Origin: a virus
Lineage: Duplodnaviria > Heunggongvirae > Uroviricota > Caudoviricetes
Virus record (IMG/VR): IMGVR_UViG_2609460125_000012
Reading direction: 5' to 3' (one strand)
Length of the DNA: 5,564 bases
Shown here: piece by piece, positions 1 to 5,564 of the stretch
Layout of the letters: each line of letters starts with the position of its first letter
How positions within the stretch are numbered: the first letter of the stretch is position 1
Made by a program: the position numbers and the translations under genes
The notes under the pieces: generated by a model
What the model was told of the DNA's origin: nothing
Databases searched by the model: none
Seen by the model: the letters and a program-made list of their open reading frames with translations, nothing else

Positions 1-51
1 CTGCATGACAAGGTCATCGGGCATTATCTGAACATAAAACACTATCAGTAA
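1..51 (+). CDS. insB: IS1 transposase InsB, C-terminal end (partial; 5' end outside window)
   Basis: In-frame translation [16 protein letters not shown] with TAA stop at 49-51, 15 bp inside the IS1 terminus. Confidence 0.85.
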   Translation: MHDKVIGHYLNIKHYQ

Positions 52-66
52 GTTGGAGTCATTACC
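1..66 (+). mobile_element. IS1 insertion sequence, right (insB-proximal) terminus; body of element lies upstream of the window
   Basis: Bases 1-51 read in frame as ...[16 protein letters not shown]-stop, which I recognise as the InsB C-terminus, followed by the IS1 terminal inverted repeat gttggagtcattacc ending at 66. Bases 1-66 are the exact reverse complement of 5363-5428. Confidence 0.9.
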
Positions 67-254
67 GAATCGGGCAATGGCCATGCGATACCGGATGCAA
101 GAAATCGCTGAAAAAGCGTATGTATTGTGGAATGACTGAGACCCAGACGCTGAGCGATGGCCCGGATGGTCAGTTTATCTTCAAATCTTAAACGCAGGGC
201 ATCAGGCAAATAAGAACGGAAGCAGGGAATATCTTTTGTTGTCTGGGAATTCAT
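67..254 (-). pseudogene. Transposase-like HTH protein, N-terminal 62 codons only; reading frame runs into IS1 (ORF 45..254)
   Basis: Translation MNSQTTKDIPCFRSYLPDALRLRFEDKLTIRAIAQRLGLSHSTIHTLFQRFLASGIAWPLPD contains a classic helix-turn-helix (TIRAIAQRLGLSHSTIHTLFQR) of the kind seen in IS30/IS21-type transposase N-termini. The frame continues into IS1 sequence and stops at 45, so the gene is interrupted. Confidence 0.4.
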
Positions 255-352
255 CGTTCGTGTCCATCAATATAGATGGGCGCGATTGTTGCCAGACAGG
301 ACAATTTTCACAAGACGTCGCTGATGGGGCGCTTACCGTAATGATGGCGACA
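67..352 (-). mobile_element. Unidentified IS-like element, left end (possibly IS21-family-like), truncated by the IS1 at 66
   Basis: On the minus strand a TG-initiated sequence (tgtcgccatcatt...) starts directly after the holin stop codon. It carries three CCCATC(A/T)-type direct repeats within about 100 bp, then an ATG at 254 opening an HTH-containing ORF. This layout resembles an IS end with transposase binding repeats; family assignment is inference. Confidence 0.35.
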
Positions 353-568
353 TTATTCACCTCTCGCAGCCTTACGCTTGTCTTCTCTGATTTTGAAGTA
401 CAGATTTGTCAGATAAGTCAGGAAGCCCAGAACCAGACTCCCCAGTACACCAATCGCAGCCCACTGTGACGGACTGACCTGATCAAGCCACTGTAAAAAC
501 CAGTAGCCAGCACTGCCTGCGGAGGTGCCGTAGGCAATGCCCGTTGAAATTTTGTCCATGGATTTCAT
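353..568 (-). CDS. Class II holin (pinholin), phage 21 S21 / EssD-EssQ family, 71 aa with dual-start motif MKSM
   Basis: ORF translation [71 protein letters not shown] matches my recollection of the phage 21 S holin (Met1 antiholin and Met4 holin starts, two TMDs, basic C-terminus). A GGAGGTGA Shine-Dalgarno lies 6 nt upstream (minus strand, 571-578). Confidence 0.9.
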
Positions 569-675
569 AGCCTCACCTCCGCAAATAACGGATGGCGTAG
601 TTTTACACTGAGAAATGAAAGGGATTTGAAAAGAAAAAACCGCAAAAGCGGGCGAAACGATATATACAGTAAGGA

Positions 676-854
676 AAGCACTCTATCCAACAAACCACTC
701 ACAGTTAATCGGAATAAAAGCAGAGTGCTTATGAATGATCGCCTGCCCGAAGGTTAGTATTTCTGCACAGCAATTTTGCAAAAAAAAGCGATCATTCATA
801 ACTTAAACGTCTTTCAGTCACTCCGGGATTTCCCATCATCGCAGACTGAAAGAC
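676..854. repeat. Three tandem long-loop inverted repeats (potential stem-loops) in the tRNA-holin spacer
   Basis: Perfect inverted repeats read directly: aagcactct 676-684 with agagtgctt 722-730 (9 bp); atgaatgatcgc 731-742 with gcgatcattcat 788-799 (12 bp); gtctttcagt 809-818 with actgaaagac 845-854 (10 bp). Confidence 0.6.
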
Positions 855-860
855 TCTGAC

Positions 861-935
<75 letters not shown>

Positions 936-938
936 ATA

Positions 939-1014
<76 letters not shown>

Positions 1015-1016
1015 AC

Positions 1017-1093
1017 TGGACCGCCACCGGGGACTCGAACCTCGCACACTCAACTTAAAGGGTTGACGCTCTTTCCTGATGAGCTAGTGGCGG
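1017..1093 (-). tRNA. Atypical tRNA or pseudo-tRNA, anticodon position reads UUU (Lys-like); C33, C1:G72, U73
   Basis: Reverse complement CCGCCACTAGCTCATCAGGAAAGAGCGTCAACCCTTTAAGTTGAGTGTGCGAGGTTCGAGTCCCCGGTGGCGGTCCA has a perfect 7-bp acceptor, perfect D-stem GCTC/GAGC, perfect anticodon stem TCAAC/GTTGA and GGTTCGAGTCC T-arm (one A.C mismatch). The anticodon loop is CCUUUAA, so the near-universal U33 is replaced by C. Confidence 0.5.
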
Positions 1094-1094
1094 T

Positions 1095-1170
1095 TGGTGG
1101 CCCTTGCTGGATTTGAACCAGCGACCTGGCGATTATGAGTCGCTCGCTCTCACCACTGAGCTAAAGGGCC
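1095..1170 (-). tRNA. tRNA with CAU anticodon, most similar to tRNA-Ile2 (lysidine type, ileX-like) rather than elongator Met
   Basis: Reverse complement GGCCCTTTAGCTCAGTGGTGAGAGCGAGCGACTCATAATCGCCAGGTCGCTGGTTCAAATCCAGCAAGGGCCACCA is a canonical cloverleaf with anticodon loop CUCAUAA. It is close to my recollection of E. coli ileX (GGCCCCTTAGCTCAGTGGTTAGAGCAGGCGACTCATAATCGC...). Confidence 0.8.
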
Positions 1171-1274
1171 GGGCGCAGGATAATAACGTTACGAAATCAA
1201 TGTTGCAAGCATTCAAAAATCACCCTTATCTCCTCCACCAGCGCATTCACCATGTCTATCCGAGATAAGTGGCA

Positions 1275-1305
1275 CAAAAAACCCGCTTGTGGGCGGGTTT
1301 TGTTT
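1275..1305 (-). terminator. Rho-independent terminator downstream of the Q-like gene (tR'-like); hairpin is bidirectional
   Basis: Stem acccgc (1281-1286) / gcgggt (1293-1298) with loop ttgtgg. On the minus strand the hairpin is followed by a U5-6 run (plus-strand A-run 1276-1280); on the plus strand it is followed by tttgtttgcttt. Confidence 0.6.
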
Positions 1306-1351
1306 GCTTTGGCCATCACGTACAAAATCGGCAAAGTATCAGATTTGCATG

Positions 1352-1380
1352 AATATATGCCTTTTAATCTACTTTTGCAA
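1352..1380 (-). promoter_or_regulatory. Candidate sigma70 late promoter (pR'-like) overlapping the 3' end of the Q-like gene
   Basis: Minus strand reads TTGCAA (1380..1375), a 17-nt spacer, then TATATT (1357..1352). The predicted start near 1345 lies about 70 nt upstream of the terminator at 1275-1305, the arrangement expected for a Q-dependent pR'/qut/tR' unit. Motif match only. Confidence 0.35.
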
Positions 1381-2059
1381 CACTTTGCTTTGAAAATGCC
1401 GTCTTTTTTTTTGAACGTGTTCTCATTACAAACAATAAAGCCTCACTATCCAGTCGGTGAAAAATGTGTTTCATTGCAACCCAGTGACGAGTAAATGTTT
1501 TGGACCAGTTTTTAGTTGTCACTCCCGCCAGTAATGCCAGCTCCTGGTATTCATAACCTTCCCCACCAAAAAGTTCTGCTTTTACTGCCTGCGCCGCCAG
1601 CCAGATTAATTTTTTCAGGCGTTCCTGCGTTTTCCCTGCAATTTTTCTGGTACCGGATTGAGCATTAAATTCATTCCACGCCCACTGTGTTATCGCGATC
1701 TGATATTCCCAACAAATACTCCCGCTGTAACACCACAACAACCAGGCTTTATAGTGCTCTTCAAGAGACAGAACAGCCCGCCGCCACGATGATGTCGAAA
1801 ACTCAACCGGACTGACCAGAGGAATTGACGTCCCCTTCGCCAGCGATTGCTTTCCCGGGATTGGTGGATTATCCCGCGTTATCATTTTTCCAGTCACTTC
1901 ATCGCGGTACCGGATTTTTTTACGCCTGTAACGCCCTGTATCGAACATGGCATTCTCTTGCCAGGCTTCAAGCTGACCTTTTGTTGCCCCACTCAAATCA
2001 GCGGTGGCGATAATGAGCTGCTCACGCACAAACTGTAAATACTGGTTATTCATGCGCAC
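1364..2059 (-). CDS. Putative late-gene antitermination protein Q-like (231 aa); function assigned mainly by position
   Basis: ORF 1364..2059 lies immediately downstream of rusA (10-nt overlap) and immediately upstream of the promoter/terminator pair, tRNA array and holin, which is the canonical lambdoid Q position. It has a C-terminal HTH-like segment (ELALLAGVTTKNWSKTFTRHW). I could not match it to lambda Q or Q21 from memory. Confidence 0.5.
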   Translation of the reverse strand: MRMNNQYLQFVREQLIIATADLSGATKGQLEAWQENAMFDTGRYRRKKIRYRDEVTGKMITRDNPPIPGKQSLAKGTSIPLVSPVEFSTSSWRRAVLSLEEHYKAWLLWCYSGSICWEYQIAITQWAWNEFNAQSGTRKIAGKTQERLKKLIWLAAQAVKAELFGGEGYEYQELALLAGVTTKNWSKTFTRHWVAMKHIFHRLDSEALLFVMRTRSKKKTAFSKQSVAKVD

Positions 2060-2415
2060 CCCAGTTCTGTGATTTTTATCCCCAGCCGCCCACCAGGAAC
2101 GAGCTGACCGCGCACAATATTGATTTCATCAAACTGCTCGTCGTCTATAAGTAGTCCAGCATGCGTCAGCGCATCCAGCGGTGCCTTCAGGATATTGTCC
2201 AGGTCACGACGGCGCTTATCCGGTGGCTCTGCAATAATCTTTATCGCCAGCCTTCCGGACAGGTTTAATTTCAGTCGCTGCTGGCGAACAATTAGCGCCA
2301 CATCACGGCGATAACGCTCACCGGCTTTTGATACAAAATATGTGCTGCCACGACGTCGCCAGTAGGTGTTCACCGTTGGCGGGTAAGGCAAAACAAATTC
2401 TATGCGTTCGGTCAT
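2050..2415 (-). CDS. rusA: Crossover junction endodeoxyribonuclease RusA (Holliday junction resolvase), 121 aa
   Basis: Translation MTERIEFVLPYPPTVNTYWRRRG...PPDKRRRDLDNILKAPLDALTHAGLLIDDEQ...GGRL shares the RusA hallmark motifs with E. coli RusA as I recall it (LPWPPS.N.YYR..., DRRRRDLDN, DALT.AG...DD.Q). Confidence 0.9.
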   Translation of the reverse strand: MTERIEFVLPYPPTVNTYWRRRGSTYFVSKAGERYRRDVALIVRQQRLKLNLSGRLAIKIIAEPPDKRRRDLDNILKAPLDALTHAGLLIDDEQFDEINIVRGQLVPGGRLGIKITELGCA

Positions 2416-3474
2416 TTATGCTTTCCACTTCAGAACACCCGAATTTCTCGCGTGCATTAAAAAACGAATCAGCAACAACAACTGACTACCGTGTTTTTCT
2501 TCAAAATCTTTTACCCCGGCGTGTAGTTCGTTATGGCATTTACGACACAGCGGAATAACAAACAAATCGTCAGCCTTTGTTCCCATCCCTCCCAGTCCAT
2601 GACCAATGATGTGGTGCGGATCATCTGCCTGATTGCCACACGTCATGCATTTCTGCGTTTTTACCCAGCGCGTGTATACAGGCATCTCTTCCCGTTGTGG
2701 TTTCTGGCGCTGGAGATACTGAGCCGGAGATTCCGGATCAACGGCAATGCTGACCACCGTCTCTTCCTGTGGTGGATTCTGTTGCTGGTGGGCGTGAGGC
2801 AGCGGCGCAAGATTTTTTGTGCGCTGCTTCAGTATGCTGGTGGCGGTCTGCTCTCCCGGCACGATGTCGCTTTCACGGTACATTGAGCGGATTTTTTCCG
2901 CACGCAACCCCAGCGAACGACGTAATACCGCTTCCGGTAGCGCGTCCGCCACCTGATTGCGGACCGCCCACCAGGATAATTCAGCCAGAGATAATTCACG
3001 CTCCTGCGTACCGCTTATTGCGTGACCGATGACGTCAATCATCCATGCTGACAGGTTTTGATGAGCAAGTTGCTCGAGTGATTCGGATGTCTGGTCACGC
3101 AGCTGGTTGTCGCAGTGCCAGCACAATACCATTGCGCCGGTACCATAACGGTGAATGACGGTTTCGCTGTGATGATAATCGCCGTGTGGCCACTGGCAGG
3201 ATTTAATATGGCGCAACAGCCAGTCAGACAATGCGCCAGCACCACCAGCAGCACGAATCACCCGTGCGTTACTGAAAAACGGCAGCAATGTTTTGTCTTC
3301 CACTAGCGGCTGGCGAACGGCAGGAACGACCCCGGACGGCAGATTACGCATGCTTTTCGGTTCCGGCTCCACCAGTACCCGGGTATTGTGGAATACCGGC
3401 ATGGATTCACGACCGGGCTTAAGGACCACCAGCCCGAGTTCCGGAACCAGAACAGGTCGAAGTAATACCCGCAC
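2416..3474 (-). CDS. DUF968-family prophage protein (YdfU-like) with Cys/His-rich HNH-like motifs; GTG start, alternative ATG at 3402
   Basis: 352-aa ORF with two Cys/His clusters: HGDYHHSETVIHRYGTGAMVLCWHCDNQ and CMTCGNQADDPHHIIGHG...PLCRKCHNELH. Size and position (upstream of rusA and Q) match the YdfU-type nin-region protein of lambdoid prophages. GGAGG lies 4 nt before the GTG at 3474. Confidence 0.65.
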   Translation of the reverse strand: MRVLLRPVLVPELGLVVLKPGRESMPVFHNTRVLVEPEPKSMRNLPSGVVPAVRQPLVEDKTLLPFFSNARVIRAAGGAGALSDWLLRHIKSCQWPHGDYHHSETVIHRYGTGAMVLCWHCDNQLRDQTSESLEQLAHQNLSAWMIDVIGHAISGTQERELSLAELSWWAVRNQVADALPEAVLRRSLGLRAEKIRSMYRESDIVPGEQTATSILKQRTKNLAPLPHAHQQQNPPQEETVVSIAVDPESPAQYLQRQKPQREEMPVYTRWVKTQKCMTCGNQADDPHHIIGHGLGGMGTKADDLFVIPLCRKCHNELHAGVKDFEEKHGSQLLLLIRFLMHARNSGVLKWKA

Positions 3475-3475
3475 A

Positions 3476-3754
3476 TTACCTCCAGATCCGTTGCTGGAAT
3501 GTGCAGGACGGACGCGGTGGCCGTTCGGAATAAGGGAGCCTGACGAAGATTATCCAGTGACGATAATCGAGACTGAGGGCTTTCTTAATCTCGTATCCGT
3601 GTCTGCGGTAGCGCTGAATCAGCCATTCAGCCTGTTCTTCGGTGCAGGGGTCGTGCTGATACCCGTCAGATTTGAATGCATGAGAACGCCGCCCGTGCCT
3701 GCTGGCAGGGGCGGCAGAGTTATCCGAATTGTAAAATTTGGTATCGTGCGCCAT
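3476..3754 (-). CDS. Hypothetical small nin-region protein (92 aa from internal ATG; ORF track extends to a GTG at 3883)
   Basis: Open frame MAHDTKFYNSDNSAAPASRHGRRSHAFKSDGYQHDPCTEEQAEWLIQRYRRHGYEIKKALSLDYRHWIIF... The longer GTG-initiated version would overlap the hok terminator hairpin, so the internal ATG is preferred. The Shine-Dalgarno is weak. It sits where Qin-type prophages carry a small gene (rem) between hok and the DUF968 gene; that homology is unverified. Confidence 0.4.
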   Translation of the reverse strand: MAHDTKFYNSDNSAAPASRHGRRSHAFKSDGYQHDPCTEEQAEWLIQRYRRHGYEIKKALSLDYRHWIIFVRLPYSERPPRPSCTFQQRIWR

Positions 3755-3825
3755 CTGTTTTCTCTGCTGGCGCAGCAGGTGCCAGTTGTTCAGGCTGACG
3801 GATGGATTGTAAACCAGAACGACCA

Positions 3826-3853
3826 GAAAAAACAAAACCCGCCGAAGCGGGTT
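3826..3853 (-). terminator. Rho-independent terminator at the 3' end of the hok mRNA
   Basis: Minus strand reads aacccgc-ttcg-gcgggtt (a UUCG tetraloop hairpin) followed by ttgttttttc; plus-strand arms are acccgc 3837-3842 and gcgggt 3847-3852. Confidence 0.7.
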
Positions 3854-3921
3854 AAGTGCGGGTGCGTTGAGGATGCCTGACACATCAGCGGTGGCGAGGG
3901 ATTTCTCCCCCGCCGGGTCTC

Positions 3922-4077
3922 TTACTCCTCAGGTTCGTAAGCTGTGAAGACAGCGACCTCCGTCTGGCCGGTTCGGATTCGTACCTCGCAGAGGTCTTTC
4001 CTCGTTACCAGTGCCGTCACTATGACGGTTAAACAGATGACGATCAGGGCGATTAACATCGCCTTTTGCTGCTTCAT
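3922..4077 (-). CDS. hokD: Hok/Gef-family type I toxin (51 aa), HokD/RelF-like
   Basis: Translation MKQQKAMLIALIVICLTVIVTALVTRKDLCEVRIRTGQTEVAVFTAYEPEE matches my recollection of HokD (RelF). AAGGAG Shine-Dalgarno sits 8 nt upstream (minus strand). The ORF track's 70-aa version starts at an in-frame upstream ATG (4134). Confidence 0.9.
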   Translation of the reverse strand: MKQQKAMLIALIVICLTVIVTALVTRKDLCEVRIRTGQTEVAVFTAYEPEE

Positions 4078-4281
4078 AGCCTGCTTCTCCTTGCCTTTCG
4101 GCACGTAAGAGGCTAACCTACATGTGTTCAGCATGGATTGAGCCTCAGATTAATGTTAAGCGTCTTGCAGGACGCGTAATGTTAACTGGGGCTTTTCTCT
4201 ATCTGCCTTTTGGTGTTCATGCCTGAGACAGATAGCCTCAAGCACCCGCAGTCATTCTACTTAACTAAGATTTCCCTGCAA
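4078..4281 (-). promoter_or_regulatory. hok mRNA leader with candidate promoter, 5' tac-like element and mok-equivalent start
   Basis: Minus-strand -35 TTGCAG (4281..4276), 16-nt spacer, -10 TAGAAT (4259..4254). The predicted 5' end tgcgggtgcttgaggc resembles the plasmid R1 hok mRNA 5' end as I recall it. An upstream ATG at 4134 sits at the position mok occupies in R1. The 5' segment (about 4236-4250) is complementary to the 3' segment cctcaacgcacccgca near 3855-3875. Confidence 0.5.
4126..4195 (+). ncRNA. Candidate Sok-like antisense RNA (coordinates approximate)
   Basis: On the plus strand, TTGCCT (4091-4096), a 17-nt spacer, then TAACCT (4114-4119) form a promoter-like pair antisense to the mok/hok translation initiation region. 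A downstream hairpin gcgtc-ttgcag-gacgc lies at 4160-4175. This matches the position of sok in hok/sok loci. Inferred, not verified. Confidence 0.35.
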
Positions 4282-4336
4282 ACCGTTTTTGTCCGGCACA
4301 GTAAATATCCAACTAAACCAATAGCGTTCGCTGTAT

Positions 4337-4516
4337 TTACCGCCAGTATTCAATGCACATGACCGCCATGAACACCCCTAAAAAAAGGGCATTTATATGT
4401 CCAAACATTAATATCAAAACATCAATTTTTTCCATATACCTTGCTGTGAAGATGATGGGCATACATGATGCGAACAACCAGAACGCAACAAACAAAAACT
4501 GCAATGCGTTTTTCAT
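4337..4516 (-). CDS. Hypothetical small hydrophobic peptide (59 aa, two predicted TM segments) in an AT-rich island
   Basis: Frame MKNALQFLFVAFWLFASCMPIIFTARYMEKIDVLILMFGHINALFLGVFMAVMCIEYWR with AGGGGG Shine-Dalgarno about 6 nt upstream of the ATG at 4516. The surrounding region (about 4340-4700) is markedly AT-rich, so this could also be a chance ORF in a regulatory region. Confidence 0.25.
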   Translation of the reverse strand: MKNALQFLFVAFWLFASCMPIIFTARYMEKIDVLILMFGHINALFLGVFMAVMCIEYWR

Positions 4517-4728
4517 TATTCCCCCTACAATCAATGTGCAATAACATTTAAACACACCTCAATTTGGCCGGACATATAAATATCTAAACCAGAAAAAATC
4601 ACTTACATAGCGTTACAAACTCTTTAGTCTAAATACTCATCGTAAAACATTCCCCATACTTATCAGTCCGTTCCGCGCCAGGTAGCTTATTGCCTTATCT
4701 GGCAACCTATAATCAGGTTTCCGCTTTT

Positions 4729-5151
4729 TCAGTTGGCTGGTCGTTTAACCGACATAGTTAACCCATTAATCTGGTTGCCGGATGCTGGTGGATTTTCGCG
4801 TTTTAATTGTTCATAAAAGTGCACAGCTTTAACCAGTTCTTCTGATGTAACCGGGACTGGTGGGGCAGTGAATAAGGCCTGAATTTCATAGTTCGGCCTG
4901 TCGTTACAATCCTCTTTTTTCGGTACATATTTCCAGTCACCAACCCACAACTCCCCCTGAGAGTCCATAACACCTTTTTTCACGTAGCGATATCGCCACG
5001 CTATCGGCTCTGCTTCCAGCGATGCCCGTGCAATTTTGAATAACTCGCCCTCTACTCGCGCCATCCCTGAATTGGGGTGGCATTTCGTAATCGCTATTTT
5101 TAATTTGGCTTCTTCGATTAATTGTTCTTTTGTTAATTCAGTCATTTTCAT
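4729..5151 (-). CDS. Hypothetical protein, 140 aa, no family recognised
   Basis: Clean 140-codon ORF (MKMTELTKEQLIEEAKLKIAITK...WVGDWKYVPKKEDCNDRP...) with balanced composition and a TTA-rich codon choice suggesting foreign origin. The antisense ORF 5036..5224 is less plausible. Confidence 0.55.
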   Translation of the reverse strand: MKMTELTKEQLIEEAKLKIAITKCHPNSGMARVEGELFKIARASLEAEPIAWRYRYVKKGVMDSQGELWVGDWKYVPKKEDCNDRPNYEIQALFTAPPVPVTSEELVKAVHFYEQLKRENPPASGNQINGLTMSVKRPAN

Positions 5152-5362
5152 TACCGCCCTGGTAATGCTGCCACCAGCGAAAATGGTTAATGGAAAACGG
5201 GCTTCCGTTCTATACCAATCGTAGTGGCAAACCGATTGTCAGCCGGGATCTATTTACCTGCAATAAAACTTTACCACCACGCGAGGTAGAGCCGAATTTT
5301 GGTGCGATCTGATGGGAAGACGAAGGAAAAATCCTGAACACGAAAAATTACCTCCAAATGTA

Positions 5363-5564
5363 GGTAATGACTCCAACTTACTGATAGTGTTTTATGTTCA
5401 GATAATGCCCGATGACCTTGTCATGCAGCTCCACCGATTTTGAGAACGACAGTGACTTCCGTACCAGCCTTGCCAGATGTTGTCTCAGATTCAGATTATG
5501 TCGCTCAATGCGCTGAGTGTAACGCTTGCTGATAACGTGCAGCTTTCCCTTCAGGCGTGATTCA
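5363..5564 (-). mobile_element. IS1 insertion sequence, right terminus, inverted relative to the copy at 1-66; body continues beyond window end
   Basis: ggtaatgactccaacttactgatag... from 5363 is the IS1 terminal inverted repeat. 5363-5428 is the exact reverse complement of 1-66, and the internal sequence continues as IS1-like insB-region sequence to 5564. Confidence 0.9.
5378..5564 (-). CDS. insB: IS1 transposase InsB, C-terminal part (partial; 5' end outside window)
   Basis: Reverse complement of 5378-5428 encodes ...[16 protein letters not shown]-stop, identical to 1-51. The frame stays open to the window edge. Confidence 0.85.

Follow-up and report, generated by a model that had tools for sequence, protein, structure and literature searches.

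An orphan S21-type pinholin gene in a Shigella flexneri prophage remnant probably dismantled by successive insertion sequences

How does an intact holin gene come to stand without an endolysin, and can it still harm the cell that carries it? The question is raised by a lambdoid late-region remnant, with its genes all on the minus strand between two IS1 ends, in a stretch of 5,564 bases (the window) that is identical to positions 4691-10254 of locus L006 (scaffold KN150715.1, assembly GCA_000754175.1). In this scaffold the window corresponds exactly to one contig, with an N gap on either side (L006 4591-4690 and 10255-10354); the draft assembly broke at these points because IS1 lies at both ends. 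Complete and draft genomes of Shigella flexneri (CP026765.1, CP026768.1, CP020753.1, NCTC assemblies) contain loci that are 99.9% identical to the window. The window is very probably the remnant of a Qin-like lambdoid prophage at the mtfA/tRNA-Ser site of S. flexneri, dismantled stepwise by insertion sequences, in which the orphan holin most likely persists as a silent relic.

The remnant carries, in order on the minus strand, a 140-aa ORF, hokD with the sok RNA, a rem-like ORF, a DUF968 gene, rusA, the antiterminator gene Q, four tRNA genes and the holin gene (Table 1). The prophages of E. coli AR_0089 (L017, Qin-like) and FDAARGOS_944 (L001) share the mtfA and int neighbourhood and the order hokD, DUF968, rusA, Q, four tRNA genes, holin, and nucleotide identity to L001 is 99.6% over 337-5160. 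Unlike the window, both retain endolysin and spanin, and L017 also retains the exo-dicB-repressor-replication region. The tRNA genes were called by ARAGORN and by four matches to Rfam RF00005, and the array is common to both of these intact relatives. The CAT-anticodon tRNA (1095-1170) was called Met by ARAGORN; RefSeq lists it as tRNA-Ile (lysidine type) in L001 and L017. The hok/sok type I toxin-antitoxin locus is apparently intact; it is a second small membrane toxin kept in the remnant.

Table 1. Positions of the features described in the text (window coordinates).
Feature	Position	Strand	Evidence or remark
IS1 end, GGTAATGACTCC... terminus	1..66	plus	No difference from the full IS1 copies of L003-L009
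First 270 bp of IS66-family ISSfl3	67..336	minus	100% identity to annotated copies
SAR endolysin gene remnant (rrrD/R21 type), 17 nt	337..353	minus	Identity to intact cassette; alignment; translation
S21-type pinholin/antipinholin gene, intact, 71 aa	353..568	minus	PF04971
Shine-Dalgarno GGAGG	576..580	minus	7 nt before Met1; shared with phage 21, where it is annotated as ribosome-binding site
Four phage-borne tRNA genes	861..1170	minus	Between Q and holin; Gly-TCC, Thr-TGT, Lys-TTT, CAT anticodon
Candidate tR' terminator, GC-rich hairpin and T6	1278..1301	minus	AAAACCCGCCCACAAGCGGGTTTTTTGTG; terminator scan lists plus strand
Candidate late promoter pR', TTGCAA-17-TATATT	1352..1380	minus	Overlaps Q end; consensus scan, 9/12 matches
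Q antiterminator, phage-82 type	1364..2059	minus	PF06323, E=1.9e-91; full length, in frame here
hokD	3922-4134	minus	PF01848, E=3e-23
sok RNA	4072-4247	minus	Rfam RF01794, 118.9 bits, full length
140-aa ORF, nin-region	4729-5151	minus	
Deletion scar, 3' part of xis-like DUF4224 gene and first 17 lambda-like integrase codons	5161..5362	plus	ATG 5312
Second IS1, inverted relative to the first	5363..5564	minus	Simple insertion in int, some strains only

The holin gene is intact, with both start codons and a Shine-Dalgarno sequence, just as the sequence-only reading had described it. Its product matched PF04971 ('Bacteriophage P21 holin S') over profile positions 1-63 of 64 with 121.5 bits (cut-off 26; E=1.4e-35). 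It is identical to the S protein of phage 21 at 70 of 71 residues (98.6%), the sole change being R64K in the C-terminal tail, and the holins of four E. coli phages are 100% identical to it. The N-terminus MKSMDK... carries the dual start Met1-Lys2-Ser3-Met4, the same as in phage 21, for which both products are annotated; it gives a 71-aa antiholin and a 68-aa holin from Met4. The first of the predicted transmembrane segments (TMD1) is weakly hydrophobic and rich in Gly, Ala and Ser, and TMD2 is hydrophobic with G40, S44 and G48 (G40xxxS44xxxG48); the hydropathy peak falls at residues 36-58, and residues 1-63 are identical to S21. The sequence was unchanged in all 12 of the 12 related loci. Pinholins form heptameric pinholes of about 2 nm, with collapse of the proton motive force (PMC9636201). 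Judged by its sequence, the 68-aa product, if expressed, should form such ~2-nm heptameric pinholes and collapse the proton motive force, with the 71-aa product as antiholin. Given its identity to S21, expression in the absence of SAR endolysin and spanin would be expected to result in cell death without lysis. The gene could then be usable as an inducible kill switch, of whose natural occurrence there is no sign here.

The cassette of phage 21 (OL657228.1) comprises the S21 pinholin/antipinholin (annotated at 2501-2716), the R21 SAR endolysin (2716-3213) and the Rz/Rz1 spanins. The window resembles it in the holin itself, the dual start, the Shine-Dalgarno sequence, the TAATG overlap with the endolysin start and the layout of Q, pR', terminator, tRNA genes and then S. 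It differs in that 17 nt of endolysin and no spanin are kept, in that Q is of the phage-82 type and not Q21, and in the number of tRNA genes between Q and holin (four, compared with two in phage 21). Lysis modules are also found in the defective lambdoid prophages of E. coli K-12, namely essD-rrrD-rzpD in DLP12 and essQ-rrrQ-rzpQ in Qin, and close relatives of the window holin are labelled essD, followed by rrrD, by PGAP. Both the K-12 modules and the window place a class II, S21-like holin after a Q homologue within a cryptic prophage; unlike the former, the window has lost both endolysin and spanin, and its early region is also deleted.

The exact place at which the cassette is cut was established by comparison with intact cassettes. 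The sequence-only reading had put an IS end at the base following the holin stop codon (TG at 352) and had the cassette severed at that codon. Neither statement holds: positions 337-352 still belong to the phage and have the sequence of intact cassettes, and ISSfl3 begins 16-17 nt past the stop codon, inside endolysin codon 6. The endolysin ATG at 353-351 overlaps the holin TAA (TAATG), as in phage 21, and TG at 352 is therefore part of the endolysin start codon; as an IS terminus it was rejected on the alignments with intact cassettes and phage 21. On the minus strand the junction reads GGT GAA TAA TG TCG CCA TCA TTA CG and continues as GTAAGCGCCCC. The surviving endolysin codons give MSPSL followed by CG, after which the frame is closed by G-TAA from the IS end. 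MSPSLR is a SAR endolysin N-terminus (R21: MPPSLRK...), and from codon 6 onward intact rrrD reads CAAGGCTGTTGCAGTTGC... The FDAARGOS_944 cassette encodes holin, RrrD and Rz, and its identity to the window stops at 337; a three-way alignment with phage 21 likewise places the phage/IS junction between 336 and 337. This rrrD'/ISSfl3 junction was found in at least 12 contigs of independent S. flexneri assemblies, complete genomes included, and also in CP182556.1 (strain SFBU1023, L015) and CP178302.1 (ECMA0423, L014); it was absent from the complete E. coli genomes searched, which places its source in Shigella.

The element at the junction is named ISSfl3 here, following the PGAP label 'IS66-like element ISSfl3'. 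Its terminal inverted repeat GTAAGCGCCCC starts at 336 on the minus strand, and the minus strand from 336, GTAAGCGCCCCATCAGCG, is identical to the left end of an intact copy in L013 (1017-3770). That copy is uninterrupted over 2,754 bp and carries tnpA (224 aa), tnpB and tnpC; its left terminus is GTAAGCGCCCC, its right end ...GGGGCGCTTAC, and it is flanked by an 8-bp duplication, GGGAAGTC. ISSfl3 thus combines a tnpA-tnpB-tnpC gene set with termini starting GTAAGCG and 8-bp duplications. The window keeps 270 of the 2,754 bp; the right end and its duplication are lost, and a search of the loci, viral contigs and metagenomes did not recover TCATTACG, the duplicate that would be expected. Of the three genes, the window holds a part of one: tnpA starts with an ATG at 254 and retains 62 codons and 2 nt of a 224-codon accessory HTH gene. 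By translation, the 69-aa ORF at 45-254 is a chimera that ends inside IS1. It matched NCBIfam NF038385 (IS66_access_TnpA) with E=2.5e-22 and 79.4 bits, which falls below the cut-off of 150 because tnpA is truncated, and it also matched generic HTH Pfam families. The window holds a fragment of an IS66-family member, not a functional element. The sequence-only reading had seen here an IS-like HTH transposase fragment, and was right about the insertion sequence and the HTH; the ORF is, however, the IS66 accessory protein TnpA and not a transposase. An assignment of the HTH ORF to IstA of the IS21 family was considered and rejected, since NCBIfam and DNA identity point to IS66 TnpA.

The ISSfl3 fragment is in turn cut by IS1, as had been proposed, at 66/67. 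Both window ends match full IS1 copies with DDE_Tnp_IS1 genes, and the two copies point the same terminus (GGTAATGACTCC) towards the window interior. The left IS1 abuts position 270 of ISSfl3, and its DDE_Tnp_IS1 gene was called beyond the window end. A simple insertion of IS1 gives a duplication of 8-9 bp. Around the left IS1 no target duplication was detected, the flanks GCCCGATTC and CGTTAATCG being different, which fits an adjacent deletion anchored on IS1, or else recombination of one IS1 copy with another. The right IS1 has an 8-bp duplication, CAAATGTA, in L005 and interrupts a lambda-like integrase gene at codons 17-18; it was present only in L005 and L006 and absent from L003, L004, L007, L008, L009 and L011. 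Adjacent deletions mediated by IS1, and IS expansion, occur in Shigella genomes. The left IS1 resembles such deletions in that its end is fixed at ISSfl3:270, its far side varies among strains and no target duplication is seen, and there is nothing unusual in this. On the far side, IS600:358 was found in most strains and a truncated zinT in L010 (3481-4300); the zinT junction is a further IS1-anchored deletion, which removed IS600 and the ipaH island.

A less decayed state of the locus is found in SFBU1023, in which holin, rrrD', ISSfl3 (1-1934), IS600 and tail genes follow one another. At the shared junction, ISSfl3 of this strain keeps full tnpA and tnpB and half of tnpC; it is interrupted at 1934 by an IS600 of 1,264 bp, 99.2% identical to an annotated copy. 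Past this IS600, genes for tail terminator, sheath, tube and chaperone lie in the same orientation. When L015 was compared with window-type loci, the match extended to ISSfl3:270 and resumed at IS600:358; 2,022 bp (ISSfl3 271-1934 and IS600 1-357) are replaced by a 768-bp IS1 in the window-type loci. From the L015 state and this replacement without duplication it follows that the window state is derived, and that ISSfl3 came first, then IS600, then IS1.

The decay comprises five steps. ISSfl3 first entered codon 6 of the SAR endolysin gene, 17 nt after the ATG, uncoupling the pinholin from its endolysin. IS600 then entered ISSfl3 at 1934, and the rest of ISSfl3, the endolysin, the spanin, the terminase and the head genes were lost; this state is still seen in SFBU1023. 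In a third step IS1 replaced the 2,022 bp with no target duplication. Separately, the early region from exo to O/P, including the repressor and pR, was deleted, and in some strains a second IS1 hit the int gene. The survival of the holin may be put down to the small size of the gene, the recency of the events and a probable lack of expression; the last is suggested by a Q gene that stands without its early operon and is frameshifted in most sister strains.

The ECMA0423 locus, which is labelled E. coli, shows 142 differences from the window, all within a patch at 4001-5000; this divergent patch points to recombination. The genome measures 4.44 Mb, and its small size and the shared rrrD'/ISSfl3 junction suggest a Shigella-like lineage labelled E. 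coli.

As had been stated from sequence, no endolysin or Rz follows the holin in the window, where the cognate SAR endolysin is represented by 17 nt and where L001 and phage 21 have the full gene immediately downstream. When RrrD and Rz of the intact relative were used in tblastn searches, no rrrD or Rz match was found up to 10 kb from the holin in either direction in 10 S. flexneri loci, and none in L014 or L015. Just beyond the left IS1, complete genomes included, neither gene was present; IS600 was found there, followed by an ipaH island with tail-fibre remnants or by the chromosomal genes yebW, yebV and rsmF. The reciprocal junction (ISSfl3 right end, TCATTACG and the remaining endolysin gene) had no match in viral contigs. 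Two metagenome matches to it were rejected as chance hits: the contigs are unrelated and GC-rich, and resemble neither ISSfl3 nor the phage. Among the cluster representatives that matched intact RrrD in a protein search were proteins of E. coli, Salmonella and others; none bore a Shigella label, and no remnant was located. The orphan status of the holin thus holds locally. The serotype-converting phage SfI has a holin that is 98.6% identical, and some strains may therefore carry a complete lysis cassette elsewhere. The absence of the endolysin is a loss of context and not of membership in the S21-type pinholin family.

Whether the holin could be expressed depends on the region upstream of it. 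The sequence-only reading had the holin placed for expression from a Q-dependent late promoter. The elements for this were in part recovered. Over 231 aa, Q shares 97.8% of its residues with the Q proteins of E. coli phages; its identity to Q82 is 75.7%. The candidate pR', a consensus match, occupies a position analogous to pR' of phage 21, and for the hairpin downstream the role of tR' is likewise suggested by its position, as in phage 21. The early region is, however, deleted. Homology to L001 ends at 5160, and homology to the DUF4224 and int genes of E. coli prophages starts at 5170; the scar between them (5161-5169) joins the 140-aa ORF to the DUF4224 gene, with the early region between them missing. 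In the AR_0089 prophage about 10 kb lie at this place, with exo, dicB, ydfABC, repressor, cro-like and replication genes. The early operon from which Q is transcribed (pR, N, nin region) is deleted relative to both L017 and L001; with this ~10-kb region, therefore, Q has lost its normal promoter system.

The Q gene itself varies among copies. Its A-run (window 1404-1412, minus strand) is A9 in the window, in frame and matching AAAACAAAA of the intact AR_0089 gene. In eight relatives, namely six S. flexneri assemblies, FDAARGOS_944 and ECMA0423, the run is A8 (PGAP: 'frameshifted'), a -1 frameshift of the last ~14 residues that affects eight of 10 related copies; in L010 it is A7, with read-through to 284 aa. 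A7 and A9 come from one draft assembly each. The lengths A7, A8 and A9 could reflect true slip-strand variation, or else the two drafts could contain sequencing errors in the homopolymer, and the in-frame A9 of the window contig may be a reversion or a homopolymer error. Since the window has Q in frame and an intact, plausible promoter and terminator, some late transcription could still arise through read-through from hokD or other upstream promoters. Four sites vary among the S. flexneri copies over 5.3 kb (1311, 1353, 1404 and 4045). Three of the four, small numbers though these are, fall within 94 bp that take in the end of Q, the -10 hexamer of the candidate pR' (1357-1352) and the leader preceding the hairpin.

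On these data a harmful relic, with the IS exactly at the holin stop codon and the holin still driven by Q from the late promoter to depolarise the membrane, appears unlikely. The holin is indeed intact, with dual start and Shine-Dalgarno sequence, Q is in frame and close to phage Q, the interval from Q to holin contains a promoter-like site and a terminator hairpin, and endolysin and Rz are not nearby. However, the junction lies at 336/337 within the endolysin gene and not at the stop codon, the early operon expressing Q is deleted, and the A-run of Q is frameshifted in most related copies, so that the A9 of the window may be a reversion or an error. The locus is also stably carried by many strains, even in duplicate, which argues against appreciable toxicity. 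In S. flexneri 1c (CP020753.1; L007 and L008) the entire locus, including the chimeric 69-aa ORF, is present twice, ~25.7 kb apart, which suggests a large duplication.

Still less probable, to the point of being improbable, is a domesticated holin, in which the pinholin with Q and the tRNA array would be selected for a host function (stress-triggered depolarisation, suicide, abortive infection, or release of vesicles or proteins) and the A-run of Q would serve as a slip-strand on/off switch. Such a role would accord with the complete conservation of the holin in all copies amid destroyed neighbours, with the variation of the A-run among strains and with the clustering of three of the four variable sites in 1311-1404 (Q end and late-promoter leader). 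Through its lysis module a defective prophage can alter the host phenotype, as with DLP12 and OMV production (PMC7918800). Against it, the divergence among copies is too low for selection to be detected, A7 and A9 may be homopolymer errors, and the holin stands without a partner endolysin, spanin or early promoter; moreover, IS-driven decay is pervasive in Shigella, and the chance retention of a 216-bp gene is expected. The holin ORF is free of lesions in every copy despite its broken neighbours. No inference on selection can be drawn from this, because the copies differ at just 1-4 sites per 5.3 kb and the ECMA0423 copy, with differences confined to 4001-5000 and none in 251-500, leaves a comparison on the holin without power. 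That the holin/IS/IS1 junctions are artefacts of collapsed repeats in a draft genome, as a contig between N gaps with both ends in IS1 might suggest, can practically be dismissed: the same junctions occur in the complete genomes and other assemblies named above, and the rrrD'/ISSfl3 junction, being present in so many independent contigs as well as in CP182556.1 and CP178302.1, is not a misassembly.

A silent relic, left by a known kind of IS-mediated prophage decay, is thus the preferred reading. The locus belongs to ordinary Shigella genome erosion and presents no new system; all of its parts (S21-type pinholin, ISSfl3, IS600, IS1, Qin-like prophage and the IS-mediated decay of Shigella genomes) are already known, and public genomes already contain the locus with annotation. 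It does offer a clean stepwise case of a Shigella prophage dismantled by ISSfl3, IS600 and IS1, with an intermediate kept in one strain. Its value lies mainly in annotation, with the breakpoint corrected: the endolysin start survives, and the holin stop codon was not hit by the IS. Two further points of annotation were observed. The name of the IS66-family element is in conflict, PGAP giving ISSfl3 and the older annotation of S. flexneri 2a 301 calling a clustered ORF 'ISSfl4 ORF1'; and in the cluster to which the 69-aa ORF belongs, some truncated members carry the wrong label 'phage tail protein'.
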